The translations under genes and the position numbers were made by a program. Shown piece by piece: positions 1 through 48,382 of a stretch of 64,000 nucleotides of DNA (position 1 is the stretch's first letter; every line of letters begins with the position of its first letter). This DNA is from an uncultured Candidatus Saccharibacteria bacterium (lineage in GTDB: Bacteria; Patescibacteriota; Minisyncoccia; Phycocordibacterales; DATDWN01): positions 6,337 through 70,336 of the forward strand of contig CAZPGQ010000002.1 of the NCBI GenBank assembly GCA_964586695.1. Reading direction: 5' to 3'. Under the pieces are notes generated by a model that worked only from the letters and a program-made list of their open reading frames with translations, made no database searches and was not told where the DNA came from.

Positions 1-3000
1 ACAGCTCCTCCGGTTGCACTCACTGCTCCAGTTGCATATGAATAATTTTCTATGATTCCACCACCAGCTCCCGCAGCAGTTCCGTTTGAACCAATAAGTC
101 CGCCAGCATATGCTGCACCGCCGGCTCCTGTAGCACCACCGGCACCACCCACTCCTCCGATTGAAGCTGTTCCACCTGCACCTCCAGCAACACCATTTGC
201 TCCGTTACCACTAGCACCACCGGTCGCAGTCACTGCTCGCGTAGAATAATTTGTAGTAATTTGTAAGTTATTACTTGCAGTGTTTGTTGTCTGTGCAACA
301 AGTCCACCAGCGTATGCTGCGCCTCCGGCTGAACTCGCACCACTCGCACCTGTTGCACCTCCAACTCCAGATCCTCCAGAAGCTGAACTACCAGCACTTC
401 CGCCAACACCTGATACACCTCCTGTTGCACTTACAGAACTAGTAATAGAATAATTATCTAGATAGTGAATAAATCCTGTTGTAACACTCGCAAGAGCAAC
501 AAGCCCACCTGCATCTGCTTCACCGCCAATTCCTCCCGCACCTCCTGCACCACCGGCGCCACCTATTGTTCCCCCTGTTGCACCTGCGCCTCCAGTACTA
601 CCAACAGCACCAACTCCACCTTGTGCACTGACAACTCCGGTTGAATATGAATTTGCAATACTACTGCCCGCAGGTGTTGTTGTAATTCTATGAATGCCAA
701 TAAGTCCACCTGCATATGCCGCACCGCCTGCTGGTGGAGTTCCAACTGCAGCTCCTCCTGCGCCCCCAGTAGCACCTGAAGCTGAAGATCCTCCTGCACC
801 AGAAGTTCCCTGAGTACCTGCATTTCCGCCAGTTGCACTAACACTGCCAGTTGCATAGTTAGAAAGATAGTCAATTGATCCAGTTGTTAAGTTGGATAAA
901 CCAATCAATCCACCTGCATCTGCTTCACCACCAACACCAGCGACTCCTCCCAATCCCCCGGCGGATCCTGTGTGAGTAGAACTTCCAGTTGAGCCATCAC
1001 CACCAGTACCACCTGTACCACCATTTCCACCCGTGCCACCCACAACACTGACATTACCAGTTGCATAAACATTTGAAATTCTCATTACTTGTGTAGTACC
1101 CGTGATACGACCAACCAACCCTCCTCCATATGTCGCGGCACCGGCACCACCATTTCCACCAACACCAGCAACAGCTGCCGTACCACTCGACTGACTTGCT
1201 CCTGATGTTCCACCAGCACCACCATTTCCACCATTACCACCAGTACCGCCTGTAACAGAAATATTTATATTTGAATATGAAGTATCTTGAATCGAACCAA
1301 GTGTTGATAGATAATCACCAACAAGTCCGCCGTATGCACGAATACCACCGGCACCTCCTGCGCCACCAACTGCACCAACACCACCGTTAAATGCACCAAC
1401 TCCTGTTCCTCCATTTCCGCCAGTACCACCATTACCTCCTGCCTGCTCACTTCCAGAAATACTTAAGTTAGTTGCGTATGAAGATGTAATAACACCAGAA
1501 CTAAATCCAATTAGACCACCCACAAACGCACCAGAAGATGCGCCTCCAACACCAAGTGTTGCAACAGCACCAGCTCCACCAGCACTTCCACCTGCTTTTC
1601 CTGAACCACCATTACCAGCATTACCACCATTTCCTGGAGTTCCACCTGTCACAGAGATATTACCTGTTCCCGCGCCGGCATCATAGCTGGCGTAAGAAGA
1701 AATAACATCTGCTGTTGCGTATCCCGCTAGACCTCCTGCATAAACAACTCCTGAAGCACCACCAGTACCAGGAACACTTCCGGCAACACCAGTACCTGAT
1801 GAACCTGAAATACCATTTGCACCGTTTGCCCCAGTACCGCCTGTTAATGTAAGTGTTGTTTTTGAATATGATCCATCTTGGATAACACCAGTGCTGTATC
1901 CAACAAGACCGCCAGCATAAACAGCACCACCTGCACCACCGTTTGATCCCGCTCCACCAATACCGTTAAGCGCTGTACCTGTACCAGTACCACCAGCACC
2001 ACCAAGCGCAGAAGCACCACCCGTACCACCAGTCGCTGTTACAGTTCCTGTTTTTGCATAACTATTTGTAATTGTTCCTAAAACATTTTGACCCGCAAGT
2101 CCCCCCGCTTGAACTGATGCTGCAAGAGTAATCGCACCAGCACCTCCGGCACCTGCTGCACCACCCACTCCACCAGCGTGGTTAGTTCCAGCAGAACCAT
2201 CTCCACCAACACCACCCACTCCTCCTGCACCTCCATTTCCACCAACAGCTGTAACACTAGTTGTTGCATATGAATCTGTAATACTTGCAGATAATGCAGT
2301 TACTCCATTTCTTCCAACAAGTCCTCCGACTGAAACTGCACCTCCGACACCACCCGCAGCACCAGCACCACCCGTCGCTGCAGTACCATTTGTAATTGTT
2401 CCAGACGCGCCCGCCGCACCACCAGCCCCACCCACGCCACCATTTCCACTTGTTGCAGTAACTGCTCCACCAATATGATAAGAATTTAATATATGTGAAG
2501 TATTATCACCAACAAGTCCACCAGTGAAGTTTACACCACCTGCACCACCCACTGTTCCTACAGTTCCTGCAGTTCCTGCTGAAGAAGATCCTCCCGCGCC
2601 TCCTGCGCCGCCGGCACCAGAATTTCCTCCGTTTCCAGATGTTCCTGTCACTGCACCGGTAGATGATGCATGAGAAATATTTCCTGTGGTTACAAGACCC
2701 ACAAGTCCACCTGTGTATGATGCACCGCCAAGACCTCCTGCGCCGCCGGCACCACCAGCACCACCCACTTGCGATGCACCACCTGTTGCACCTGCACCAC
2801 CCGCACCAGCATTACCTCCATTTCCTGCAACAACAGTAACATTACCTGTTGAATATGATGATTCAATCGAAACTCCAGTGTTTGTAAACCCAACAAGTCC
2901 ACCACCATATGCAAAACCTCCTGCTCCACCCGCACCACCTATGCCTCCTGCACCTCCAGCAACTGCACTTATAGCATTACTACCTACCCCACCGATACCA

Positions 3001-6000
3001 CCGGCACCACCTGTGTCTCCGGTAATTGTTACATTTCCTGTAGCATAAGAATCCTTTAATACAACTCCAGCTCCTGAAATAGAACCAATAAGACCTCCTG
3101 CATTTGATGCTGTTGCTTGAGTAATACCTCCAGCACCGCCGGCACCTCCAGAACTTCCAGCTGCACCGTTTACACCAGCAACTCCAGATCCTCCTGTGCC
3201 ACCTGTATCAGCATTGACAACAACATTATTGGTAGAAAATAGGTTATTGATATAAGCAACAGCAGAGTTACCCCCCAAAGCTCCTCCAACAAAAAGTGCA
3301 CCTGTTGCACCGCCGGCACCTCCAGCACCTCCTACTCCATTTCTTCCACTTCCTGAACCACCTGAACCACCAGCGCCACCTGAACCACCGTTTGCACCTC
3401 CACCACCAGAAGTAGCGGTAATCGTACCACCCTCACTACTTGAATTTGCAATATTTCCGTTCCCTTGACCAACAAGACCTCCTAAATATAAGTTTCCACT
3501 TGCTCCACCCGCTCCACCGGCACCACCAACTCCACCAGTGTGACCACCAGTTCCACTTGCACCGTTTCCTCCTGCGCCGCCGGCACCACCAGCACCACCA
3601 TCAACATTACTACTTGTAATATCTCCTACTACAATTGAATTATTTATAAGTCCTGGATTATCTCCTGCAAGTCCTCCTATATATGTTGCGCCTCCTGCGC
3701 CGCCGGCACCACCAGCACCACCTGTTGCTCCAGCACTTCCAGAAATATTACCGGATGCTCCAGCATTACCTCCGTTTCCACCAACACCTGGTGTTCCACC
3801 TGAGACAGTGATAGTAGTAATTGTATAATTGGTATTTCTAATAACACCAGTATTTGAACCGGCTATACCTCCACCATACCCCGCACCACCGGCACCACCA
3901 GCGCCTCCTACACCACCGGCACCACCTATTGCACCCGTAGAACTACCGCCCGCACCACCATTACCACCTGCACCACCATTACCACCTGCTCCACCTGCTG
4001 AATTAACCGTTCCTGTATTATTTGCAATATTAATTGTTCCTGCTATGACACCATTCCAACCCATAACACCCCCTGCATACGAGGCTCCTCCAGCACCTCC
4101 TGCACCTGCAGCTACTCCGGCAACACCAACAACTCCAGCGCCACTATTACCTCCATTTCCTGCATTTCCACCAGCACCACCAGCACCACCTGTTGCAGAA
4201 ACATTACCATTTGCATAAACATCTGATGCAACAGCACCAACACTAAATCCAATAAGTCCACCTGCTGCACCAACACCACCAACAGTTCCGACACCACCCG
4301 CAATACCAGTTCCTCCAGTAAATGCACCAGTTGATGTTCCTCCATTTGCGCCCGTAGCACCATTTGCACCTGCACCACCCGTTGCTGTTGCATTACCTGT
4401 TGCATAAGAACCTTGCACACTTCCATTTGTAGAATTAAATCCGATAAGCCCACCAGCATATCCAACACCTCCAAGGTTTGTTGCAGTAGCACCAGCTGCT
4501 CCACCAGCACCTCCAGCAGATGTTGCTCTATCACCACCAACACCACCACCACCATTCGCTCCACCGGCACCTCCAGTTGCTATCGCATTTCCAGTAGAAT
4601 ATGTCTCATGTATAGAACCTGTATTCATACCAACTGCTCCACCAGAATATCCAGCTGCTCCAACAACACCGGCACCTCCCACACCTCCAGCAGCACCCAC
4701 ACCTCCAGCTCCACCAGTCCCACCGATACCAGATGATCCTCCTGTTGAAGTAACAACAATATCAGCATATGAATCATTCACCACTCCAGCAGAATTAAAT
4801 GCAACAAGACCGCCTGCATATCCAATACCACCAGCACCGCTCGCACCACCTGTTCCACCCGCTGCACCAAGAGCTCCAGTACCACCGATACCACCAGCAC
4901 CACCTGTTGCACCTGTTCCACCATTACTACCGATTGAAGTAACAGAACCAGTTTCAAAATTTACCGAAGTTATACTTGCAGTATTTAAACCAGCAATACC
5001 ACCTGAATATGCAACTGCACCCGCACCTCCTGCTCCACCTGTAGCTCCTGCAGCACCAGTACTTGAAGCACCACCAGAAACATTACTGCCACCAAGACCC
5101 GCTGAACCACCATTCGCACCAGCAGATGCTGTTGCAGTTATTGTTCCACTTGCATAAGAATTAATAATTGTGTTTGTGTTGTTACCAACAACTCCAGATG
5201 CATACGCAATGGCACCAGCACCACCCGTGCCTCCAGTACCTCCTACTGCTCCTGCTCCAACAAAGGTTCCCACTGACGCACCTCCGGTACCACCGGAACC
5301 ACCAACCTGTGCAGTTCCTCCAAGTGAAGTAACATTACCTGTTGAATACGAAGTATCTTGAATCACACCAGCACTTTGTCCTGCTACACCTCCTGCAGTA
5401 GCAACACCACCAGCGCCTCCTGCTCCAGCAGCAGCACCAATACCACCCGCAAAGTTTGTTCCACCAACACCGCCAGTTCCTCCATTTCCAGCAGAACCAC
5501 CTGCACCACCAGTAACAAAAACATTTCCAGTATTGTAACTACTAGTAACTGTTCCTAGAATAATCTGTCCAACTACTCCTCCACCAAATGCTGCACCTCC
5601 TGCTCCACCAGCAGCTCCAGTCGATCCTGCTCCACCAGTGTTTGAAGTTCCCGCTCCACCATTCCCCCCGTTACCTCCGAGTCCACCAACACCACCAGTT
5701 GATGTAGCAATACCTGTTGAATATGAATTTTGAATTTCTCCGTTGTTAAGGTACCCAACAACACCACCTGCATAAGCGATACCACCTGCAGCTCCCGCTG
5801 AACCCGCAATACCAGCTACACCTGTTGTGAAAGTGTATCCATTACCACCATTTGCACCTGCTCCACCAGCACCAGATGTTCCTTCTACATTACTTGTTGA
5901 ATATGAGTCAGAAATTGTAGTTCCTGTATTGTGTCCAACAACTCCTCCCGCATAAATAATTCCTCCAACTGTTGCAGCACCAGCTGCACCTTGTGTTCCA

Positions 6001-9000
6001 CCTGTCCATGCACCACCAGCACCACCTGCGCCAGCAGATCCTCCTGCACCAGCTACACCAACTACACTACCGGTAGTATGGTAACTTTCTCTAACTGACA
6101 ACGTGCTGTTACCTGCAATTCCTCCAATATATAAAACTCCAGCTGCACCTCCAGTTCCGCCAGCAATACCAGCAAGTCCGTTCTGGGCCGCCACACCTGT
6201 GGCTCCTGCACCACCTGCACCACCAGTGCCAGACACAGCATTTGTAGAAGATGCAAATGCATTAACACCAAGATTACTTGCAACAACACCTCCAACATAT
6301 GCAGTACCACCAGCTCCACCTGCACCAGATGCACCCCCGGCACCAGATGTTCCCGCTGATCCCTTTGCACCACCGGATCCTCCAGTACCCCCAACTCCTC
6401 CAACTCCACCGACGACACTAACTAGTCCAGTCGTTGAATTTACATATCTAATCGCTCCATTATTTAATCCAACCAAGCCACCTGAATATGCTCCACCACC
6501 AGCACCACCAACAGACCCAGCTCCACCAGCACCACCTGTACCTGTAGTAGTAAGTGAAGCACTACCACCTGCTCCACCCGTAGTACCATTTTTACCCGCA
6601 GATCCTGTTGCCGTTACAACACCACTAGCGTAAACTTCTAAAGTTTCGCCTGAAATAATTCCTGATATACCATTTTGAGCAACGAGTCCTCCAGCGTATG
6701 CGATTGCTCCAGCACCACCAGCACCTCCAGTCGCAGTTGCACCAGATGCACCAGCAGCCACTGAACCCGCGGCAGAAGCACCACCCGCACTTCCCGCTGA
6801 ACCGTTACCTGGTGTACCACCAGTTGCCTGGACAACTCCTGTTGCATAACTTCCATTTTCAATAGTTCCTGAATTGTTTCCAACTAATCCACCTGCATAC
6901 GAAACACCACCAATTCCTCCAGCGGCACCGGCACCACCAATTCCTCCAATATTTGATCCTCCACCACCAGTTCCTGCATTACCCCCAGTACCAGATGTTC
7001 CTGCATTACCACCTGCACCACCTAGCGCAGTAACTTCTCCAGTAGTGAAAGAGGAACTCACTGTCCCGGCTTGTATCCATCCTACAAGTCCTCCAACATA
7101 AGAAACGCCTCCGGCTCCAGCTACTGCAGCTGCACCGCCTGCTCCACCAATTCCAGTTCCAACTCCAGTGACTGATCCATTTCCTCCATTTCCTGCATTT
7201 CCACTTGCACCTCCTGCTCCACCAGTACCAATAATTGTTGCCGTACTTGTTGCAGTTGCAATACTTCCTTGTTGTGAATATCCAACTACACCTCCCACAT
7301 ACACAGTACCGCCAATTGCAGCGGCATTACTAACAGCTGAACCACCTAAACCACCAGTGTTCGTCCCAGTTGTAGTGTTTCCACCGTTACCGCCAGCACC
7401 TCCTGCACCACCAGCACCTCCTGCACCAGTAACACTTCCCGCAACTCCAACATTTGTAATTGTTCCTGTGTTATATCCAACCAAACCACCGAGATATAAA
7501 ACACTACCCGCAGTACCAGCACCACCGTTAGTACCCGCAGTTGGTGATGCTCCATCCGATCCAGCTGAACCAGTACTACCTACAGTTCCCGCGGTACTTG
7601 TTGCACTAACAGATAAACCAGAAAGATATACATTTTGAATAAGGTTTGTTGAATATCCAAAAATTCCCACATAACTTGATGTCGTTGTGGCAATAAATAA
7701 ATTGCTTATGGTGAAATTATTTCCATCAAAAATTCCTGTAAATGTATTAACAGTTGAATTGCCCACTGGATCAAAACCGGCTCCAGAGTTCCAACCAGTT
7801 GTATTTGTGGCATCTATGTTGTTGTTTAATTTATAAGAACTTGATGTCGCAGTTTTCATTCCCTGTAGTCCATACACATCATAAATTATGAAAGGGTCTG
7901 TACTTATACCCAATCCGGTATATCGACGAAATGTACCTGCGCTTACAGAAAAACTTCCTGTCACGGTTAATGTATTTGTTTCAGGATTGGTCGCTGTAAA
8001 TGTCGCTGCAGATGTCTGAGAATAATTTCCAGACTGGCCACCAGAGTTTGTAATTGTAAGATCTTCACTTTGAACAATTGTCCCTGTATATCCACTGATA
8101 GTGATTGAGCCTGCAGTCGCAGAAGTATCTATGGTAATTACAGAAGATGCAGATCCAGAACTTGCATCAAAAAATACCGCAGTTGTTGCATCTGGAATAC
8201 CACCAAAACTTCCAGCCACACCGTTAGAAGATGCAGCCCATTTGTTTGAATCAGACCAATTTCCAGTACCTCCCACCCAGTAAGCATTTGGGTCAGTGAT
8301 GTAGTCTATCTCAATATTACCAATAATCTTTAAATCAAAAACTGCTGTCGGATTTATAAGCCCATTAAGAACTAGACTGTATCTTCCGTCACTACCGATT
8401 GTCGCAAAAGTTCCAACGTATGTACCATCAATTGTATAAACTTCTACCGTTACGGGAGAGCTGGAGCTAGCAGGTCGAGCAAACAATGTAATGTCACGTG
8501 TATTATCCAAAAGATGTTCAAATGTAACTCGCACATACTGCCCATCTAAAATACTCACATAATTTTGATCACGTGTTTTAACTAAATCATAAATATCCTC
8601 AATAACATTTTTAGCACTGTCCAATCTCATAGCATTTGAAATTAAAATAATTTCAAAAATCTGTGTAGACAAATGTGGAACTATCCATGCTACGTGATCT
8701 ATGTAACCGTTTCCATCTTCATCAGTTGCAACAAATTGCATTTCCTGAGCTCCGTTATTTTTCCACTGAATTTTAATTTTACTTTCATCACCCACTTTAA
8801 AAATTTCTGGTATAGCAGTTTGAACTGGAATGTTTATCATCGGTGTAATCAACTCCTGTTCCGGTGTTGCTGAAACTACTACTGTTTTTCCATTCTCTGA
8901 AATTTGCTCAACGATTGTTGGAATTTCTATTTGTGAAGATTGCGAACCTCCACCAGAAAGTGAATCATGGGTTTCAACTGAAGTTGTAGAATTCTGACTT

Positions 9001-9449
9001 ATAATATTTTCAGTAGAAGTTGAAACCTGTTCTTCGTTTAAAATTAAAACTGAAGTTGAGGTTGAAAATTGACCTTCATCTAAAACCGAATCAGAGTCAA
9101 GAATATTTTCATTATTTGAAATTTCATCCGTAGTTGTAGCAACAGAAATTTCTGTTGCTGTGGAATTTTGAATCTGCGTATCTATCTCAACTTGATTCTC
9201 GATTAGCGGATCTGCTGCCTGCTCAATATTTTCTTCAACAAGAATTGAAGGTTCAGTTATTTCTGGGATAGGCAATTCTGGAACTGCAGGCACTTCAGGA
9301 GCCACAACCTCTATTGGATCCACCTGGACCAATACTTCATTATCAGCATGGAGCTCCAATGGCAGCGCGACAAAGGCAAGTAGAAAAAATATCACTAAAG
9401 TATTTTTAGTGAAATATAATTTTAAATTTTTTATCCGTTCAAAAAACAT
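1..9449 (-). CDS. Giant secreted glycine-rich GLUG-repeat surface protein. 5'-partial (ORF runs off the left window edge), >3100 aa in window.
   Basis: Minus-strand ATG at 9449 encodes signal peptide MFFERIKNLKLYFTKNTLVIFFLLAFVALPLELHA. About 600 aa of non-repeat N-terminus follows, with GLUG-like stretches (GIFGYSTNLIQNVYLSGLSVSAT). Then about 7.6 kb of degenerate repeats of the form AGGLIG..ITNSYATGSVSA.GG separated by G/A/T/S linkers (e.g. ANGVAGGAGGTASIGGVGGAGGATGAGGAAYAGG read from revcomp of 100-200). No ORF ending at 9449 is listed in the track, so the frame stays open to the window edge. Confidence 0.8.
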   Translation of the reverse strand, partial: MFFERIKNLKLYFTKNTLVIFFLLAFVALPLELHADNEVLVQVDPIEVVAPEVPAVPELPIPEITEPSILVEENIEQAADPLIENQVEIDTQIQNSTATEISVATTTDEISNNENILDSDSVLDEGQFSTSTSVLILNEEQVSTSTENIISQNSTTSVETHDSLSGGGSQSSQIEIPTIVEQISENGKTVVVSATPEQELITPMINIPVQTAIPEIFKVGDESKIKIQWKNNGAQEMQFVATDEDGNGYIDHVAWIVPHLSTQIFEIILISNAMRLDSAKNVIEDIYDLVKTRDQNYVSILDGQYVRVTFEHLLDNTRDITLFARPASSSSPVTVEVYTIDGTYVGTFATIGSDGRYSLVLNGLINPTAVFDLKIIGNIEIDYITDPNAYWVGGTGNWSDSNKWAASSNGVAGSFGGIPDATTAVFFDASSGSASSVITIDTSATAGSITISGYTGTIVQSEDLTITNSGGQSGNYSQTSAATFTATNPETNTLTVTGSFSVSAGTFRRYTGLGISTDPFIIYDVYGLQGMKTATSSSYKLNNNIDATNTTGWNSGAGFDPVGNSTVNTFTGIFDGNNFTISNLFIATTTSSYVGIFGYSTNLIQNVYLSGLSVSATSTAGTVGSTGSAGSDGASPTAGTNGGAGTAGSVLYLGGLVGYNTGTITNVGVAGSVTGAGGAGGAGGAGGNGGNTTTGTNTGGLGGSAVSNAAAIGGTVYVGGVVGYSQQGSIATATSTATIIGTGGAGGASGNAGNGGNGSVTGVGTGIGGAGGAAAVAGAGGVSYVGGLVGWIQAGTVSSSFTTGEVTALGGAGGNAGTSGTGGNAGTGGGGSNIGGIGGAGAAGGIGGVSYAGGLVGNNSGTIENGSYATGVVQATGGTPGNGSAGSAGGASAAGSVAAGASGATATGGAGGAGAIAYAGGLVAQNGISGIISGETLEVYASGVVTATGSAGKNGTTGGAGGSASLTTTGTGGAGGAGSVGGAGGGAYSGGLVGLNNGAIRYVNSTTGLVSVVGGVGGVGGTGGSGGAKGSAGTSGAGGASGAGGAGGTAYVGGVVASNLGVNAFASSTNAVSGTGGAGGAGATGVAAQNGLAGIAGGTGGAAGVLYIGGIAGNSTLSVRESYHTTGSVVGVAGAGGSAGAGGAGGAWTGGTQGAAGAATVGGIIYAGGVVGHNTGTTISDSYSTSNVEGTSGAGGAGANGGNGYTFTTGVAGIAGSAGAAGGIAYAGGVVGYLNNGEIQNSYSTGIATSTGGVGGLGGNGGNGGAGTSNTGGAGSTGAAGGAGGAAFGGGVVGQIILGTVTSSYNTGNVFVTGGAGGSAGNGGTGGVGGTNFAGGIGAAAGAGGAGGVATAGGVAGQSAGVIQDTSYSTGNVTSLGGTAQVGGSGGTGGASVGTFVGAGAVGGTGGTGGAGAIAYASGVVGNNTNTIINSYASGTITATASAGANGGSAGLGGSNVSGGASSTGAAGATGGAGGAGAVAYSGGIAGLNTASITSVNFETGSVTSIGSNGGTGATGGAGGIGGTGALGAAGGTGGASGAGGIGYAGGLVAFNSAGVVNDSYADIVVTSTGGSSGIGGTGGAGGVGAAGGVGGAGVVGAAGYSGGAVGMNTGSIHETYSTGNAIATGGAGGANGGGGVGGDRATSAGGAGGAAGATATNLGGVGYAGGLIGFNSTNGSVQGSYATGNATATGGAGANGATGANGGTSTGAFTGGTGIAGGVGTVGGVGAAGGLIGFSVGAVASDVYANGNVSATGGAGGAGGNAGNGGNSGAGVVGVAGVAAGAGGAGGASYAGGVMGWNGVIAGTINIANNTGTVNSAGGAGGNGGAGGNGGAGGSSTGAIGGAGGVGGAGGAGGAGYGGGIAGSNTGVIRNTNYTITTITVSGGTPGVGGNGGNAGASGNISGSAGATGGAGGAGGAGGATYIGGLAGDNPGLINNSIVVGDITSSNVDGGAGGAGGAGGNGASGTGGHTGGVGGAGGAGGASGNLYLGGLVGQGNGNIANSSSEGGTITATSGGGGANGGSGGAGGSGGSGSGRNGVGGAGGAGGATGALFVGGALGGNSAVAYINNLFSTNNVVVNADTGGTGGSGVAGVNGAAGSSGGAGGAGGITQATASNAGGLIGSISGAGVVLKDSYATGNVTITGDTGGAGGIGGVGSNAISAVAGGAGGIGGAGGAGGFAYGGGLVGFTNTGVSIESSYSTGNVTVVAGNGGNAGAGGAGATGGASQVGGAGGAGGAGGLGGASYTGGLVGLVTTGNISHASSTGAVTGTSGNGGNSGAGGAGGAGGSSSAGTAGTVGTVGGAGGVNFTGGLVGDNTSHILNSYHIGGAVTATSGNGGVGGAGGAAGASGTITNGTAATGGAGAAGGVGGAVSVGGLVGRNGVTALSASITDSYATTSVTAVGGNGGAGGVGGVGGDGSAGTNHAGGVGGAAGAGGAGAITLAASVQAGGLAGQNVLGTITNSYAKTGTVTATGGTGGASALGGAGGTGTGTALNGIGGAGSNGGAGGAVYAGGLVGYSTGVIQDGSYSKTTLTLTGGTGANGANGISGSSGTGVAGSVPGTGGASGVVYAGGLAGYATADVISSYASYDAGAGTGNISVTGGTPGNGGNAGNGGSGKAGGSAGGAGAVATLGVGGASSGAFVGGLIGFSSGVITSSYATNLSISGSEQAGGNGGTGGNGGTGVGAFNGGVGAVGGAGGAGGIRAYGGLVGDYLSTLGSIQDTSYSNINISVTGGTGGNGGNGGAGGTSGASQSSGTAAVAGVGGNGGAGAATYGGGLVGRITGTTQVMRISNVYATGNVSVVGGTGGNGGTGGTGGDGSTGSSTHTGSAGGLGGVAGVGGEADAGGLIGLSNLTTGSIDYLSNYATGSVSATGGNAGTQGTSGAGGSSASGATGGAGGAAVGTPPAGGAAYAGGLIGIHRITTTPAGSSIANSYSTGVVSAQGGVGAVGSTGGAGATGGTIGGAGGAGGAGGIGGEADAGGLVALASVTTGFIHYLDNYSITSSVSATGGVSGVGGSAGSSASGGSGVGGATGASGASSAGGAAYAGGLVAQTTNTASNNLQITTNYSTRAVTATGGASGNGANGVAGGAGGTASIGGVGGAGGATGAGGAAYAGGLIGSNGTAAGAGGGIIENYSYATGAVSATGGA

Positions 9450-9903
9450 AGATTATTATTAATAATTTTAACAAACAGATTTTTTTATGTATATGAAAAA
9501 TGATTATATTTTTAGTCATATTCTTCTACTAAACTTTTTAATTTTATTAGTATTTTTTCACAGAAAAAATAGCTAGCTTTTTGCGGGAAAACAATTTAAA
9601 AATCAGCATTAACTATCCAATGAAATATTAGATTTGAAAATAATACTTGCATGAAACATCTACCCAGACGAAGCCATCACCTTTAAATTTATTATCGATA
9701 GAAATAGAAAATGTTTTTATGTATTTATATATACTATATTATTGGGCCGACACATTAATAAACCTTGATAATGATATATACGAAATTGACTATTTTATCT
9801 ATATTTATAGCTCCACTAGTTTAAAATTTATATTTTACTTGTAGATTTAATTTTTTGGTAAAAGTATGCCTAATTTAAATCTGTGTAACATTTTTGATTT
9901 TTG

Positions 9904-14530: not shown

Positions 14531-14557
14531 TTACGTCTTGTGTCGAGGGTGGGTTAC
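14531..14557 (-). repeat. Direct repeat of the last about 27 nt (T-arm 3' side + acceptor 3' strand + trailer) of the tRNA(CAU) gene at 14700-14772
   Basis: cgtcttgtgtcgagggtgggttac at 14533-14557 matches cgtttgtgtcgagggtgggttac at 14697-14720. The intervening about 140 bp is GC-rich with multiple hairpins (gcgac..gtcgc, cctggtc-tact-gaccagg, gaaagccg-taaca-cggctttc). Confidence 0.7.
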
Positions 14558-14699
14558 TTCCGCGACTATTTTTTCGCCGTCGCTCAAAAATGTCGTGTCC
14601 GCGACTCGCGACCTGGTCTACTGACCAGGTGCCCGCTCCGTCCATCGAACCCACACGAAAGCCGTAACACGGCTTTCTCCTCGCACAAAACTACGTTTG

Positions 14700-14772
14700 T
14701 GTCGAGGGTGGGTTACGATCCCACTGCCTTGGGCTTATGAGTCCCACGCTCTACCAATTGAGCTACCCCGAC
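14700..14772 (-). tRNA. tRNA with CAU anticodon (elongator Met or Ile2/lysidine type)
   Basis: Minus strand: G1-C72 acceptor gtcgggg/cctcgac, D arm gctc/gagc, loop ctCATaa (A31-G39 mismatch noted), T arm gtggg-atcgtaa-cccac. Confidence 0.65.
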
Positions 14773-14853: not shown

Positions 14854-14924
14854 AGCGGGATGGAGAAGCAGTATCTCGGTAGGCTCATAACCTGCAGACC
14901 CAGGTGCAAGTCCTGGTCCCGCAA
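14854..14924 (+). tRNA. tRNA-Met (anticodon CAU) with initiator-like features
   Basis: Acceptor agcggga/tcccgca with unpaired 1-72 (A-A). A11:U24 in D stem (gaga/tctc). Anticodon stem gtagg/cctgc, loop ctCATaa. T arm ccagg-tgcaagt-cctgg. Confidence 0.6.
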
Positions 14925-14925
14925 C

Positions 14926-14972
14926 AAGTATGAAAAAAGAACCCTTATGGGTTCTTTTTTCATACTTGTTGC
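14926..14972. terminator. Perfect 21-bp-arm palindrome (bidirectional terminator candidate)
   Basis: acaagtatgaaaaaagaaccc-ttat-gggttcttttttcatacttgt lies between the 3' end of the plus tRNA and the 3' end of minus gene 15115-16053. Confidence 0.6.
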
Positions 14973-15114
14973 GGACAGACATAGTGCCGAGCACTATGTC
15001 GTCAGGACTTGCAAGGCGGAGCGGGCACACACTCACCAGAGTGGGTCGAGAGCCGGGGAGGCGGAAATTTTGTTGCAACAAAATTATCCGTCGACGATGT
15101 CCTGGTCCAATTTT

Positions 15115-38826: not shown

Positions 38827-38891
38827 AATATAGTGCAGATTATCACAAATAGGCATTTTTTAAAATGTTGTGATATATTTACTTTTATCTT

Positions 38892-38978
38892 GGAGAGATG
38901 GATGAGTGGCTTAAATCAACGGTTTACTAAACCGTCATCCCTTAATTGGGATCGCGAGTTCGAATCTCGCTCTCTCCG
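38892..38978 (+). tRNA. Class II (Ser-type) tRNA whose anticodon reads ACU as drawn (unusual A34). Needs tRNAscan-SE verification.
   Basis: Acceptor ggagaga/tctctcc, D stem gat/atc, anticodon stem acggt/accgt, loop ttACTaa, variable stem atccc/gggat, T arm gcgag-ttcgaat-ctcgc. Confidence 0.6.
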
Positions 38979-39125
38979 CAAGTAAAAATTACTTGTAATT
39001 TTTATCGAAGGAGAGGAGGACTAGCTTTTTGTATTCAAAAAGCGTTAGTCGATTCGAAAAGGTTCTTTAGATATTTTTAGAGCTTGCGAATAAAAATATC
39101 AAAAACCTGCACTGAAACTGTAAGT

Positions 39126-39147
39126 TTCGAATCTCGCTCTCTCCGCA
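39126..39147 (+). repeat. Direct repeat of the 3'-terminal 22 nt of the tRNA at 38892-38978, located about 145 bp downstream
   Basis: ttcgaatctcgctctctccgca occurs at 38959-38980 and again at 39126-39147. Confidence 0.7.
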
Positions 39148-39197
39148 GGAGAAATTTATTATGATAAAATAATGCCATTATTATTATCATAAATAAA

Positions 39198-39467
39198 ATG
39201 TTCAAAATCATAGGAGATATTTTTATTCCCCACCCCTATCTTGCACTAATACCAGCTATTATTTTTGGTTTTATATATTTTAAAAATAAGCAATCAGCAC
39301 TCCTTTGGCCAATTTCACTTTGGACACTGTATGCAATATACGAGGAGCTAAATTTACTCAGAATCACTTGTTCTGGGGAATGTAATATAAGAATAGATTT
39401 GTTTTTGATCTACCCTATTCTTGCAGTTGTATCTATCTGGGGAATTATAAAAAGTTTTAACAAATAA
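39198..39467 (+). CDS. Small (89 aa) three-helix membrane protein, function unknown
   Basis: Hydrophobic ORF followed by GC hairpin terminator ggcgcggg...ccgcgccc (39476-39500). Confidence 0.4.
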   Translation: MFKIIGDIFIPHPYLALIPAIIFGFIYFKNKQSALLWPISLWTLYAIYEELNLLRITCSGECNIRIDLFLIYPILAVVSIWGIIKSFNK

Positions 39468-39788
39468 ACGAAAGGGCGCGGGTAAATTCACCGCGCCCAC
39501 CGTATCAATCAACTTCCCGACATCTTTTGGGAATTTTGCTGATATCCTCGATCCTCTGCTTCCTCTCCCGCATCTGCTTGTCTGTTTCACCCGGGGCCCT
39601 TTCTGGCGGAGGAGCAGACTCTTCAGAATCTCGATTGGTTAGAATTTCCAAGATGAGCTCCTCTCAAGGTTTCGGTCCGGCACAATCCGCATTTAATTAT
39701 ACCACCATACCAAACTACGTCAATAGATACCAAAATAGTAATAAATGTGGATAATATTTGTAGTATAATGTTCTCCTAACCTAACCAA

Positions 39789-40946
39789 ATGAACTACTAC
39801 AAAAAATCACTGGATCTACACAAAAAACTTAAAGGCAAACTAGAAGTTATTTCAAAAACAAAAATAAAAAACAAAGATGACCTTTCGACTGTATACACTC
39901 CGGGTGTAGCAGAAGTATCCAGAACTCTCTCAAAAAACCCTGCTCTCGCCAGAACTTACTCAATGAAAGCAAACTCTGTCGCTGTTATATCTGACGGCTC
40001 TGCAGTACTTGGTCTTGGGAATATTGGCCCATATGGGGCGCTACCGGTAATGGAAGGCAAGGCGGTTTTGTTCAAAGAATTTGCTGGAGTGGATGCCTAC
40101 CCTATTTGTCTTGATACACAAGACACAGAAGAAATAATAAAAACAATAAAAAACATTGCCCCAGGTTTCGGAGGAATAAATCTGGAAGATATTTCTGCAC
40201 CAAGATGTTTTGAAATTGAAGAAAGACTAAAAAAAGAACTAGATATCCCTGTCATGCACGATGACCAACATGGAACAGCTATTGTGGTTCTTGCTTCTCT
40301 TATTAACGCCCTAAAGATAGTTAAGAAAGAAAAAACCAAAGTCAGAGTTGTTATAAACGGCGCTGGCTCTGCAGCAATAGCGATAGCCAAACTTCTTATG
40401 GAATACGGTTTTAATGGTCACAATATGATCATGGTAGACAGTGTGGGAATAATCTACCGTGGTCGCGAAGGCATGAACCCTCACAAATCCTTTATCGCAG
40501 AAAAAACAAACTTAAAAAAAGTATCCGGATTACTTGAACATGCGTTGGTGGGTGCAGATATTTTTATTGGAGTTTCTGTTGCTGATTCTCTAAAACCAGA
40601 ATGGGTAGAAACAATGTCAGAAGATCCTATTGTCATCGCGCTAGCAAACCCTAATCCAGAAATAAGTATGGAAAAAGCCAAAAAAACAAAGATCAAAGTT
40701 TTTGGGACTGGTCGTTCCGACTACCCTAACCAAATAAACAACGTTCTGGTTTTTCCTGGTATCTTTCGGGGAGTCTTAGACAGTGGAGCAAAACAGATAA
40801 CTGAAAAAATGAAGCTGGCTTCGGCAGAGGCTATAGCGAAACTAGTCTCAAAAAAAGAGCTATCTGCTTCTTATATAATCCCAAATCCTTTTGATAAAAG
40901 AGTAGCAAAAGCTGTTGCAAATGCAGTTAAAAAGGTTTCCAAGTAA
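39789..40946 (+). CDS. maeA: NAD(P)-dependent malic enzyme (short form)
   Basis: 385 aa. VYTPGVA...[12 protein letters not shown]...[10 protein letters not shown] motifs of the malic enzyme N-terminal and NAD-binding domains. Confidence 0.8.
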
Positions 40947-44299: not shown

Positions 44300-44620
44300 A
44301 AATATTGGAAAAGCCCGCGGAAAGCCTCAAAGTTGCGGACTTTTCCTACGGGCTAGAGAAGAACTACCTTATGGACGAGTGTCGTGGATCCGTGGTCTTT
44401 CGGCGTCATACTCGTGCCTTCTGGCACGACCATTGTAACCCTGTGGTTATACCAACGGCCAACAGGAATGCTTCTCCTGTACACACCATAGATGACAACC
44501 TGACGAAGCACTGTAATGGTCCCCACCTCCTGGAAGTAGTCACCAATCTTGAGGTCGCCGAACTTTTCATCCCGAAATCTCTTACAGTTATCCTGCATAT
44601 GCCTCCCTACAGTCCATAAT
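44300..44620. other. GC-rich orphan segment of unknown nature (no confident ORF or RNA assignment). Possible remnant of an integrated element beside the tRNA-fragment cluster.
   Basis: Base composition visibly richer in G+C than flanks. Overlapping short ORFs on both strands (44305-44619 +, 44353-44598 -) without recognisable motifs. Confidence 0.4.
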
Positions 44621-44641
44621 ATTTATTAAGAATATATTGTC

Positions 44642-44672
44642 AAACTCTTGTGCGCCTGCCTGGAATCTGAAC
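44642..44672 (-). pseudogene. Degenerate tRNA 3' fragment (T arm + acceptor 3' strand ...caggcgcac)
   Basis: Minus-strand cccagaagttcagattccaggcaggcgcac resembles the 3' end of the tRNA at 44835-44908. Confidence 0.5.
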
Positions 44673-44719
44673 TTCTGGGAAACCCACGGTTTTCCCAATC
44701 CTTCCTCCACGGGAAACTC

Positions 44720-44744
44720 CCGTTTCCCGACCCCTTCCCTGGTT
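44720..44744 (+). pseudogene. Plus-strand tRNA 3' fragment (T arm cctgg-ttcgagt-ccagg + taggca) followed by terminator hairpin aaacgcctttcggcgttt
   Basis: Orientation opposite to the other copies. Confidence 0.45.
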
Positions 44745-44776
44745 CGAGTCCAGGTAGGCAAAAACGCCTTTCGGCG

Positions 44777-44826
44777 TTTATTCTGTGCGCCTGCCTGGAC
44801 TCGAACCAGGGACCCCAGAGGTATAT
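44777..44826 (-). pseudogene. tRNA 3' half (anticodon-loop 3' side through acceptor end). Variant copy with compensatory T-stem swap.
   Basis: Minus-strand tatacctctggggtccctggttcgagtccaggcaggcgcac. T stem cctgg/ccagg versus ccagg/cctgg in the intact gene. Confidence 0.6.
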
Positions 44827-44834
44827 GGGGAAGA

Positions 44835-44908
44835 AAACTCCGTGCGCCTGCCAGGATTCGAACCTGGGACCCCAGAGGTATAAGCTCTGTGCTCTAACCA
44901 ACTGAGCT
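44835..44908 (-). tRNA. tRNA-Ile (anticodon UAU) by loop reading
   Basis: Acceptor gcgcctg/caggcgc, D arm gctc-agttggtta-gagc, anticodon stem cagag/ctctg, loop ctTATac, T arm ccagg-ttcgaat-cctgg. Confidence 0.65.
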
Positions 44909-44988
44909 ACAGGCGCACGCAATTTTCTTCCATCCCATATAGCTGGTTCGATCGGATGTAATGAAAGCAAGCTTTCGCCACATCCTCA

Positions 44989-45027
44989 CTGCCAGCTATA
45001 AGCTCTGTGCTCTAACCAACTGAGCTA
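44989..45027 (-). pseudogene. tRNA 5' half (positions 1 to about 37, ends inside anticodon loop cttata), identical to the 5' half of the tRNA at 44835-44908
   Basis: Minus-strand tgcgcctgtagctcagttggttagagcacagagcttata. Followed by an 80-nt segment bounded by gctgg...ccagc instead of a 3' half. Confidence 0.65.
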
Positions 45028-45043
45028 CAGGCGCATTTATGTT

Positions 45044-47984: not shown

Positions 47985-48378
47985 GGGGGATGACAGGCAT
48001 AGACAAGTAAGTCCTTTGACAATGTGCACGACAGAACTGAAGTAATTCTTTAAACTGCTTCAAAGCATAGATGCTAAAAACACCTTTGCAAAAGCAATCC
48101 CTTCACCATTTATGGCGAATGGATTCGCTCTCGCTTTCGCTTAATCTTTTAGATTAAACCAAAACGGCGGCTATTCCTCGAAGTCTGTTACAGGAAATAG
48201 TTGATATATCATCGGACTTGAGAACGTCTTAGTTTCGAGGCGGACTGACACAAAGAAAACTAAAATACAATTCATTTTGTTGGTTTAAAGAATTGTATTT
48301 GAAAAATAAAACCAACTACGTCGTGTAGAAACATTGCCAAAACTTATTTGCACGGCGGTTCAAATCCGCCCTTCTCCA
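47985..48378 (+). ncRNA. ssrA: tmRNA (ssrA): tRNA-Ala-like ends plus tag reading frame ANGFALAFA-stop
   Basis: 5' GGGGGAUGACAGGCAUAGAC. 3' T arm ggcgg-ttcaaat-ccgcc + acceptor cttctcc + A, with G3-U70 wobble pairing to the 5' end. In-frame gcg aat gga ttc gct ctc gct ttc gct TAA at 48115-48144. Immediately downstream of smpB, and followed by a terminator. Confidence 0.7.
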
Positions 48379-48382
48379 CAAA

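Follow-up and report, generated by a model that had tools for sequence, protein, structure and literature searches.

RtT-like modular elements with copied tRNA tails behind tRNA-Ser(ACU) and other tRNA genes in a low-GC patescibacterial DNA stretch

We analysed a 64-kb DNA stretch ("the window") of a low-GC member of the Patescibacteria (Candidate Phyla Radiation, CPR), in which the tail of a class II tRNA-Ser(ACU) gene is repeated exactly a short distance downstream of the gene. The repeat bounds a compact unit, free of open reading frames (ORFs), that matches in its architecture the RtT units lying behind the tRNA-Tyr genes of E. coli, and units of the same layout were found behind other tRNA genes of the window and behind tRNA and tmRNA genes of related Patescibacteria. 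We give about even credence to the reading that the repeated 22-mer forms the distal arm in a modular, RtT-like tRNA-tail element without ORFs, which was installed by recombination anchored in the T-loop and which is probably kept as a structured RNA. A preliminary description of this DNA had drawn attention to the tail duplication and to a companion case at a tRNA-Met gene, and had suggested a recurrent mechanism, either a small tRNA-targeting insertion element or the transplantation of a promoter/terminator module. What is added here is that every spacer also contains the tail in inverted copy, that the window has two further cases (Met2 and Ile), and that homologues of the spacers stand at other tRNAs of relatives.

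Results

The repeat and the tRNA-Ser(ACU) gene

The nearest genome matches of the RecG protein encoded in the window are uncultured metagenome-assembled genomes labelled "Saccharibacteria", Taylorbacteria or Paceibacteria; the sequences compared with the window are denoted below by L numbers. The 22-mer TTCGAATCTCGCTCTCTCCGCA is present exactly two times in the 64 kb (38959-38980 and 39126-39147, both on the + strand), and it was matched 0 times in 100 dinucleotide-preserving shuffles with up to 3 mismatches permitted. The two copies lie 167 nt apart from start to start with a spacer of 145 nt, and the duplication, its spacing and the AT hairpin at 38982-39005 are as the preliminary description had given them. 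The proximal copy begins at the first T-loop base of the tRNA, takes in the 3' strand of the acceptor and then the discriminator G, and ends with two trailer bases (CA). Neither ARAGORN nor Rfam found a second tRNA within 38980-39200, only the last 22 nt of the tRNA being repeated; a tandem tRNA gene array was rejected, the second unit not being a full-length tRNA. At least five independent reconstructions contain the arrangement (3 sequencing runs and 2 GenBank metagenome assemblies), and the whole module was identical in the contigs of SRR10036056, SRR10036059, SRR32414321, GCA_013558295.1 and GCA_013565575.1, so the repeat is no assembly artefact.

The tRNA gene itself was found with its anticodon unchanged in L087, L088 and L089. 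An adenosine at position 34 (A34) is unusual among bacteria except in tRNA-Arg(ACG). The tRNA-Ser(ACT) gene stands head-to-head with a tRNA-Ser(GCT) gene in the window (38892-38979), in L087 (4756-4843), in L088 (1201-1288) and in L089 (2772-2861); in the more distant L002-L004 the GCT tRNA alone is found near recG.

Anatomy of the Ser module

The module has the following order (Table 1): the tRNA tail (X), an AT hairpin (t), the tail once more but inverted and split by a hairpin (X'), a cassette of 67 nt, and the direct copy of X. Hairpin t misses the G+C criterion of the terminator scan. In the helix predicted to close the module by pairing of X' with the distal X, the acceptor part and the TTCGAA part pair, and the T-stem part is degenerate. 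The inverted T-loop within X' follows the tRNA concerned, being ATTCGAA in modules of the Ser types (reverse complement of TTCGAAT) and ACTTGCA in the Met2 module (reverse complement of TGCAAGT). The GTATT loop of the junction hairpin is common to the modules with cassette A in L088 and L002, and the junction gcgagATTCGAA recurs in L087, L088 and L002. Since the distal X is a perfect copy of the ACU tail, the X' is imperfect, and the GTATT loop is shared with cassette-A modules associated with GCU tRNAs, the sequence suggests that the inner part of the Ser module (junction hairpin, inverted T-loop and cassette A) may have been imported from a module of the GCU type.

The trailer bases within X and X' are genomic in each case (gCA, aCAA; tgcggagacg in L002) and never CCA or TGG. 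Because the repeat carries genomic trailer bases and not CCA, the tail was copied at the level of DNA; a retro-copy of a mature tRNA or tRNA fragment, or a primer-binding site, is excluded by these trailers and by an X' without the TGG complement. The 145-nt spacer holds no ORF longer than 44 aa, and the consensus scan found no promoter-like site on the sense strand of 38981-39147. The two hairpins at 39140-39197, ahead of ORF89, are possibly the original terminator of the tRNA.

Table 1. Coordinates of the tRNA-Ser(ACU) module, of its surroundings and of the other modules in the window
Feature	Position	Strand	Basis
Promoter-like site TAGGCA-18-TATATT, TG ahead of the -10, before tRNA-Ser(ACU)	38850-38879	+	Consensus scan; predicted only
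tRNA-Ser, class II, anticodon ACT, CCA not encoded	38892-38979	+	ARAGORN; Rfam RF00005, 55.6 bits
Proximal X: T-loop, T-stem 3' strand, acceptor 3' strand, discriminator, 2 trailer nt	38959-38980	+	Sequence
Hairpin t, aaaaattac-ttg-taattttt: 10-bp A/T-rich stem (one G-C pair) and T run, terminator-like	38982-39005	+	Minimum free energy fold
X', acceptor part GGAGAGG, complements TCTCTCC of X (6 Watson-Crick pairs, 1 G-U)	39010-39016	+	Inverted repeat; fold pairs it with distal X
Junction hairpin, 34 nt, loop GTATTC, at acceptor/T-stem boundary of X'	39017-39050	+	Fold
gATTCGAA, inverted T-loop TTCGAAT, inner end of X'	39051-39058	+	Sequence
Cassette A, 67 nt, AT-rich; inner hairpin 39066-39104, loop GAGCTTGCGAA; terminates in ACTGAAACTGTAAGT	39059-39125	+	Inverted repeat; fold
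Distal X, exact 22-nt tail copy (22/22), 3' arm of closing helix	39126-39147	+	Sequence; fold
Small hairpin TCTCC-GCA-GGAGA, then imperfect AT-rich hairpin preceding ORF89	39140-39197	+	Terminator-like scan match 39140-39152; rest from sequence
ORF89: 89 aa, membrane-like, no Pfam match	39198-39467	+	Annotated ORF
Malic enzyme gene, downstream of ORF89	39789-40946	+	Annotated ORF
tRNA-Met1 (14699-14772) and module: X' (gtgcgagg / hairpin / gtgtgggttcgat), GC-rich cassette B, distal X 14538-14557	14538-14772	-	Sequence; fold
tRNA-Met2 (14854-14925) and module: split X' (cttgttgcgg / hairpin / caggacttgca), B-like cassette	14854-15108	+	Sequence; fold
tRNA-Ile(UAU) complex, nest of ~390 nt	44649-45035	-	Sequence; fold

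Other modules in the window

Structures of this kind are borne by four of the eight tRNA genes of the window, namely Ser(ACU), Met1, Met2 and Ile. The companion case, which had been placed at 14531-14772, is borne out as an exact 20-nt repeat of the tRNA-Met1 tail (14538-14557 and 14697-14716, spacing 159 nt), with the distal X (gtaacccaccctcgacacaa) coming after the GC-rich cassette. The Met1 region was identical in five assemblies, and with these five identical contigs a strain comparison there shows reproducibility alone. At Met2 a perfect 26-bp hairpin (14919-14974) takes in the tRNA's own 3' end, and the distal X is partial (10 nt, 15099-15108).

The tRNA-Ile(UAU) complex starts with a copy of the 5' half of the tRNA (45035-44994) that breaks in the anticodon loop and is followed by a hairpin; thereafter come the intact tRNA (44916-44842), carried by a long helix, and a copy of the 3' half (44825-44782) that begins in the anticodon loop, and the distal part is made up of a terminator, a 24-nt inverted copy of the T-arm (44759-44736), cassette C and a copy of the 3' end (44667-44649). 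The nest looks like a tRNA gene inserted in the anticodon loop of its own copy. The complex is ~98% identical between the window and L001, compared with 81% for the adjacent recG DNA. The leader of the intact tRNA pairs with its trailer (atatggg..ggaagaaaa / ttttcttcc..cccatat), and the L001 complex (8777-9227) has an extra insertion of 66 nt within one cassette hairpin loop. Directly past the last Ile tail copy there is a near-consensus promoter-like site, TTGACA-16-TATTAT (11/12; 44616-44643, - strand), which is directed at the recG end, where no minus-strand gene is evident.

An alignment of the spacers to one another, proposed in the preliminary description, did not bring out a common sequence: BLAST found no similarity between the Ser and Met1 spacers, and they could not be aligned over their full length, yet cassettes A and B share one type of hairpin (AT stem, GAGC..GCGA loop). 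The single link that BLAST returned was a 12-nt match between the Met1 spacer and the region past Met2. The short motif GAGC-N(2-4)-GCGA was too permissive for use across all loci. The cassettes had no match in the rest of the window, the ribosomal operon included.

Recurrence and cassettes in related Patescibacteria

We surveyed 88 tRNAs (those of the window, those of 80 RecG-anchored loci and of a few others) for a copy of the tail, taken as the last 24 nt with a score of at least 12 and within 400 nt of the gene. A downstream copy was present for 10 of the 88 tRNAs, at offsets of 124-250 nt, and an upstream copy for none; partial copies tend to break off in one of three tRNA loops (T, anticodon or D). 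The same layout stands behind tRNA-Ser, tRNA-Ile and tmRNA genes of related Patescibacteria, so that the recurrence suspected earlier from two cases holds for half of the tRNA genes of the window and extends beyond it.

Three relatives with tRNA-Ser(ACU) were obtained from a metagenome scan using its anticodon arm, and among the window, L087 and L088 three different cassettes lie behind this one tRNA. L088, ~88% identical to the window, has the tRNA followed by t, a perfect X' (gggagagcgagattcgaa), the GC-rich cassette B and X; behind its tRNA-Ser(GCU) there are t, X', a cassette A homologue and the GCU-tRNA tail in a further copy. L087, whose flanks are 98.5% identical to the window, has t, a perfect X' and a homologue of cassette C. 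A further contig, L099, shares its metagenome assembly with L087 yet is identical to the window (cassette A), so that alleles A and C coexist in one community. The more distant L089 has both Ser tRNAs without a 3' module; its flanks are not orthologous to the window.

Each cassette in turn was met behind several tRNAs. Cassette A is hosted by tRNA-Ser(ACU) in the window and by tRNA-Ser(GCU) in L088 and L002 (nhmmer E = 0.003 and E = 5e-4, respectively), the RecG of L002 being only 65% identical to that of the window; cassette B by Met1 and Met2 in the window, by tRNA-Ser(ACU) in L088, by tRNA-Ile in L003, by the tmRNA in L002, and in L001 it comes after the Ile complex; cassette C by the Ile complex (window and L001) and by tRNA-Ser(ACU) in L087. 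The L002 tmRNA module shows the full order of X, terminator, split X', cassette and degenerate X, and the tRNA-Ser(GCU) of L002 is followed by two tandem modules, the proximal one intact and the distal one decayed. It follows that cassettes move, or undergo exchange, from one tRNA tail to another, the arms being those of the local tRNA. The orientation of the cassette relative to the tRNA was constant in every case, which rules out invertible, shufflon-like segments.

Some neighbouring structures differ from this pattern. L087 carries a module on the 5' side too, an insertion of 176 nt (3377-3552) upstream of its tRNA-Ser(GCT) that duplicates tRNA positions 1-17 and holds a pseudo D-arm/anticodon arm whose D-loop has an insert. 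L003 8462-8525 is partly homologous to this insertion, which is missing from the window strain, the flanks being 98.5% identical. Between the two Ser tRNAs of L087 there is also a 1.2-kb segment (3598-4707) with a 369-aa polytopic membrane protein, where the window has 65 nt; the tRNA pair thus carries an indel that differs between strains. A related type of module was seen at tRNA-Leu(UAG) of Saccharibacteria (L043 15667-15851; L065 6769-6956; L076 18056-18326): behind a terminator the variable-arm/T-stem 5' strand is repeated directly, in the form that the tRNA of each genome has (gtggagg or gttaagg); next come TGAGAA, a covarying hairpin and TTCG, and after an insert of 100-190 nt there is the tRNA tail with its CCA. 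The L001 insertion likewise has the order GGTGAGAA-hairpin-TTCG, and E. coli RtT has GGATGAGAAG. The tmRNA of the window itself (47986-48379) encodes an unusually long tag, AKNTFAKAIPSPFMANGFALAFA, and is without a tail module, unlike the tmRNA of L002.

Folding and structural conservation

Unconstrained folding of the Ser module gave hairpin t and a multibranch structure closed by X':X (-46.6 kcal/mol, z = -3.8), and X' was likewise paired with the distal X in the unconstrained folds of Met1 (z = -5.95), Met2 (z = -8.66) and the L088 modules (z = -5.5 and -6.9); the Ile complex folded at -205 kcal/mol (z = -11.6). Comparison of the first hairpin of cassette B between Met1 and L088 showed that the AGTA loop was kept and that 4/7 pairs were changed on both sides. 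In a seven-sequence alignment RNAalifold returned a second hairpin and an outer helix, with compensatory changes in 8/13 pairs, and one G-U pair is retained in five of the seven sequences. In 13 of 14 CPR modules the more stable fold was that of the tRNA-sense strand and not of the antisense strand (G-U pairs, 48 vs 34).

The hairpin that interrupts X' is located at, or no more than 2 nt from, the acceptor/T-stem boundary in all six modules having one (Ser, Met1 and Met2 of the window, Ser(GCU) of L088, and both Ser(GCU) modules of L002), and additionally in the tmRNA module of L002. This boundary is the sole natural branch point in a tRNA-like acceptor/T helix. In the predicted fold the helix of X' with distal X is itself like an acceptor/T-stem, the small hairpin occupying the position at which the tRNA body branches off and the cassette that of the T-loop. 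These fold comparisons, on small samples, favour selection on a folded molecule of the sense strand, which they do not assign with certainty to RNA as against single-stranded DNA.

Comparison with E. coli RtT

In the E. coli chromosome (NC_000913.3) units with a period of 178 bp lie behind tyrT and tyrV, each ending in a 19-nt tail of tRNA-Tyr (AATCCTTCCCCCACCACCA) that starts in the T-loop, and each contains GGGGAAGGATGAGAAGCTTCGA, 22 nt that are 86% complementary to the T-arm and acceptor of the tRNA. As a positive control, the covariance model RF00391 matched the four E. coli units at 133-137 bits; its consensus structure is closed by GGGGAAGG:CCUUCCCC, which is the X':X helix, and leaves ccaCCACCA as a tail. 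The rtT RNA, studied by Egan and Landy in 1978, by Rossi in 1981 and by Bösl and Kersten in 1991, is reportedly transcribed and processed, and the number of repeats in E. coli is said to be 3.14. Covariation supports parts of the RtT structure, and RtT is curated as a structured RNA (PMC8250186).

The two systems share a unit directly downstream of a tRNA gene and on the same strand (38981-39147 after tRNA-Ser in the window), a 3' end of the unit that copies the tRNA tail from the T-loop on (19 nt in E. coli, 22 nt in the Ser module), and an upstream inverted copy of T-stem and acceptor (GGGGAAGG in E. coli) that pairs with the tail copy and so closes an insert of several hairpins. They are also of similar size (178 nt, compared with 159-186 nt for the CPR modules), and tandem units occur in E. 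coli and likewise in L002. They differ in that E. coli has one cassette at one tRNA, whereas the CPR modules have several cassette families that swap among Ser, Met, Ile and tmRNA; in the terminator-like hairpin between tRNA and X', in an X' that copies the whole T-loop, both features of the CPR modules; and in the CCA, which is encoded in E. coli but not in the CPR modules. The spacers and cassettes matched no Rfam family at permissive thresholds. The CPR modules are thus RtT-like in architecture and fail the sequence and covariance test of the family. The conserved loop of cassette B, GAGCGACGGCGAGA (window region 14585-14600; L088 1060-1071; L001 8662-8673), resembles GAGCGCCAGCGAGA, which lies in each E. 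coli RtT unit (GAGCG-N3-GCGAGA; L090 1138-1149 and repeats) at a different position within the unit, and the likeness could be chance.

Neighbouring regions of the window

Between ORF89 and the malic enzyme gene (39470-39700) the window is non-coding and GC-rich (~51%), with a hairpin GGGCGCGG..CCGCGCCC; the fold of this stretch was not significant (z = -1.6), there was no Rfam match, and homologues were found only in the same strain. The opening part of the window (1-9452, - strand) is taken up by an ORF, truncated at the window start, that has at least 3150 aa. Its product, 30% glycine (GGA/GGT-type repeats), is probably a surface protein, and the ORF accounts for the 50% GC and the GC skew of -0.4 in the first 8 kb.

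Discussion

A possible origin of the modules

We infer a recombination step, an enzyme for it, and the transcription and processing of the product, as follows. Recombination anchored in the T-loop would insert 167 bp (a tail to take the place of the original one, then hairpin t, X' and cassette A) and would displace the original tail and the hairpin that follows it 167 bp downstream; the repeat would on this view correspond to an att-like duplication of the target. A recombinase encoded at a distance would supply the activity in trans, and cassettes would subsequently be exchanged between modules. A read-through transcript would fold to a minihelix-closed RNA with a tRNA-like acceptor end, and tRNA end-processing enzymes may trim this folded RNA, as with rtT RNA in the tyrT operon. 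Gain or loss by whole units would leave its signature in a precise empty site, with the T-loop of tRNA-Ser(ACU) joined straight to GGAGAAATTTATTATG, and in a circle or tandem junction of the 167-bp unit reading ...ACTGTAAGT-TTCGAATCTCGCTCTCTCCGCA-AGTAAAAATTAC.

Several observations weigh against this reading. At the tRNA-Ser locus neither an excised form nor a precise empty site was observed, and the annotated ORFs in 10-53 kb of the window include no integrase, recombinase, transposase or reverse transcriptase. A T-loop crossover that brought in the cassette of another tRNA would yield a chimeric tRNA, and because a simple crossover does so, an extra step (gene conversion, or exchange of the inner part only) must be assumed. 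The T-stem part of X' in the Ser module (..agtcg) mismatches the ACU tRNA and makes the closing helix imperfect, and in L001 and L003 cassette B has no distal X after it, so the closing helix is not obligatory. The terminator-like hairpin between tRNA and module means that transcription of the module is not assured. The RtT covariance model gave no match in the window at the gathering threshold, nor around the modules at E <= 5 or <= 1, and none in L088, L001 and L065 at E <= 0.1. The cassette families comprise 2-7 sequences each.

A functional RNA of local origin

An unlikely alternative, though the one to which we would turn first, is that the tail was duplicated locally and kept as an immobile, RtT-like regulatory or processing RNA, the shared cassettes being due to descent and gene conversion. 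The strong predicted folds, the compensatory changes together with the conserved G-U pair, the sense-strand bias and the constant orientation relative to the tRNA would all be expected of such an RNA, as would the conservation of the Ile complex (~98%, against 81% for neighbouring coding DNA), and RtT gives a precedent as a curated RNA with covariation support (PMC8250186). This explanation does not sit well with the occurrence of one cassette behind different tRNAs across genomes, nor with three cassettes behind tRNA-Ser(ACU) in strains that are 88-98% identical. The absence of modules in L089 and their decay in L002 suggest turnover and not a fixed function, and the terminator-like hairpin ahead of the module counts against this RNA as well.

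Integration scars and att duplications

The passage of PMC9897764 that cites Reiter 1989 and Williams 2002 gives a repeat from the T-loop through the 3' end as the standard geometry of tRNA att sites. We consider it rather unlikely that the Ser module is a scar of this classical kind, left when a phage or island entered the T-loop of tRNA-Ser by means of its own tyrosine integrase and deletions then reduced it to ~145 bp of attachment arms. The direct repeat of a tRNA 3' segment starting in the T-loop (in the anticodon loop at Ile), the tRNA left intact, and an apparent presence or absence at the level of strains are common to the modules and to att duplications, as are serial arrays such as tycheposons, in which older partial tRNA copies lie farther from the tRNA; the proximal intact and distal decayed modules of L002 are what serial integration would produce. 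The same 22-mer, moreover, was found in a partial tRNA-Ser beside tyrosine integrase genes in two IMG/VR contigs, L082 and L084.

The scar hypothesis meets its difficulties in what lies between the repeats. There are 145 nt there and not kilobases, without integrase, cargo or ORF; the extra 1.2 kb of L087 likewise encodes only the 369-aa membrane protein. Deletions occurring independently at 10 different tRNAs would not all end in units of 125-250 nt. The space is filled by the inverted tail copy and a conserved structured cassette, and an inverted copy with a hairpin at the acceptor/T boundary is foreign to known attP arms, while the cassettes evolve in a compensatory manner. The cassettes were tried as phage attP arms and rejected, since pattern scans of IMG/VR gave matches judged to be at chance level and nhmmer gave no real homologue.

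Likeness to integrons and miniature elements

The modules also resemble integron attC sites and the hairpin sites of CTX phage, in form only: a site, its content, an inverted site, a variable structured centre and a site again, with the parallel order attI/R', cassette, R'', variable terminal structure, R'. In common with integron cassettes they include ORF-less units of uniform orientation that may occur in tandem and have exchangeable centres. They differ from them in lacking RYYYAAC/GTTRRRY core sites and an adjacent intI, and their arms of 19-22 nt depend on the tRNA and are not explained by the 6-7-nt exchange of integrons. With miniature inverted-repeat transposable elements (MITEs) and with the Correia, RPE and REP/BIME elements they share a small size (100-200 bp), a non-coding and hairpin-forming nature, a location at gene ends and multiple copies. 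Whereas MITEs have constant terminal inverted repeats and short target duplications, the "duplication" in CPR consists of 20-22 nt of the tRNA; a MITE is excluded because the terminal arms vary with the tRNA (Ser, Met, Ile, tmRNA), the inner cassettes being shared. The small tRNA-targeting insertion element of the preliminary description comes close but is too simple, the unit being a composite with an exchangeable cassette: as the arms match the local tRNA while the cassette is shared with other tRNAs, it is not an element of fixed sequence with ends of its own.

Replication by-product, promoter/terminator transplant and artefact

It is improbable that the modules arose as a neutral by-product of replication, by template switching at quasi-palindromes in which the tail was copied first inverted and then direct, with no function or dedicated mechanism. 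The region does consist of the nested palindromes X-t-X' and X'-cassette-X, and the arms always match the adjacent tRNA, but template switching leaves unexplained why the copy boundaries fall in tRNA loops in every case, why the hairpin stands at the acceptor/T boundary in all six modules having one, and why homologous cassettes are found at unrelated loci.

We hold it to be very improbable that a promoter/terminator cassette was transplanted to this site to control ORF89 and the malic enzyme gene, in the manner the preliminary description had likened to modules of the spc operon. The sole feature that agrees with this proposal is the terminator-like hairpin with its T run right behind the tRNA, and the next gene does begin 50 nt past the distal X. 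Against the proposal stand the promoter scan of the spacer and the search of the window, in which the cassettes matched neither the ribosomal operon nor anything else, and the same layout elsewhere precedes another tRNA (Met1, then Asp) and follows the tmRNA. An assembly artefact or collapsed tandem tRNA array, to which the contig breaks within tRNAs might point (at 38907 for the start of Logan contig L081, at 14393 or 14757 for the ends of others), is effectively refuted by five independent assemblies that are identical across the module, by a second copy that comprises the last 22 nt only, and by homologous modules in other species, which also take the number of cases well past the two first noticed.

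Meaning of the finding

A bolder form of the RtT-like, recombination-installed element, which we offer as a speculation with little expectation that it holds in full, is that the modules represent an undescribed class of ORF-less minicassettes of 150-250 nt. These would fold as dumbbells (an X:X' stem with a hairpin at one end and the cassette at the other) and would pass from one tRNA or tmRNA gene to another through T-loop-specific recombination catalysed in trans, the tRNA gene serving as an attI-like receptor; E. coli RtT would then be a fossil or a relative of the class, and the transcript would mimic the acceptor/T-arm half of a tRNA.

Partial copies of tRNAs are usually dismissed as prophage scars, and here such a "scar" is an arm of a compact folded unit, which is found again at many tRNA and tmRNA genes of ultra-small patescibacterial genomes and whose inner cassette is traded from tRNA to tRNA. 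The modules combine an RtT-like architecture with the geometry of att duplications in tRNA genes, and thereby extend to a distant phylum an old structure of E. coli that has been unexplained since the 1970s. On the practical side, the modules break assemblies inside tRNA genes and can be miscalled as tRNA fragments or att sites. If the reading is true, RtT would be a widespread design and not an enterobacterial oddity, and many independent sequences would be at hand for studying its role, be it a processing signal, a tRNA mimic or a mobile cassette, and its origin.

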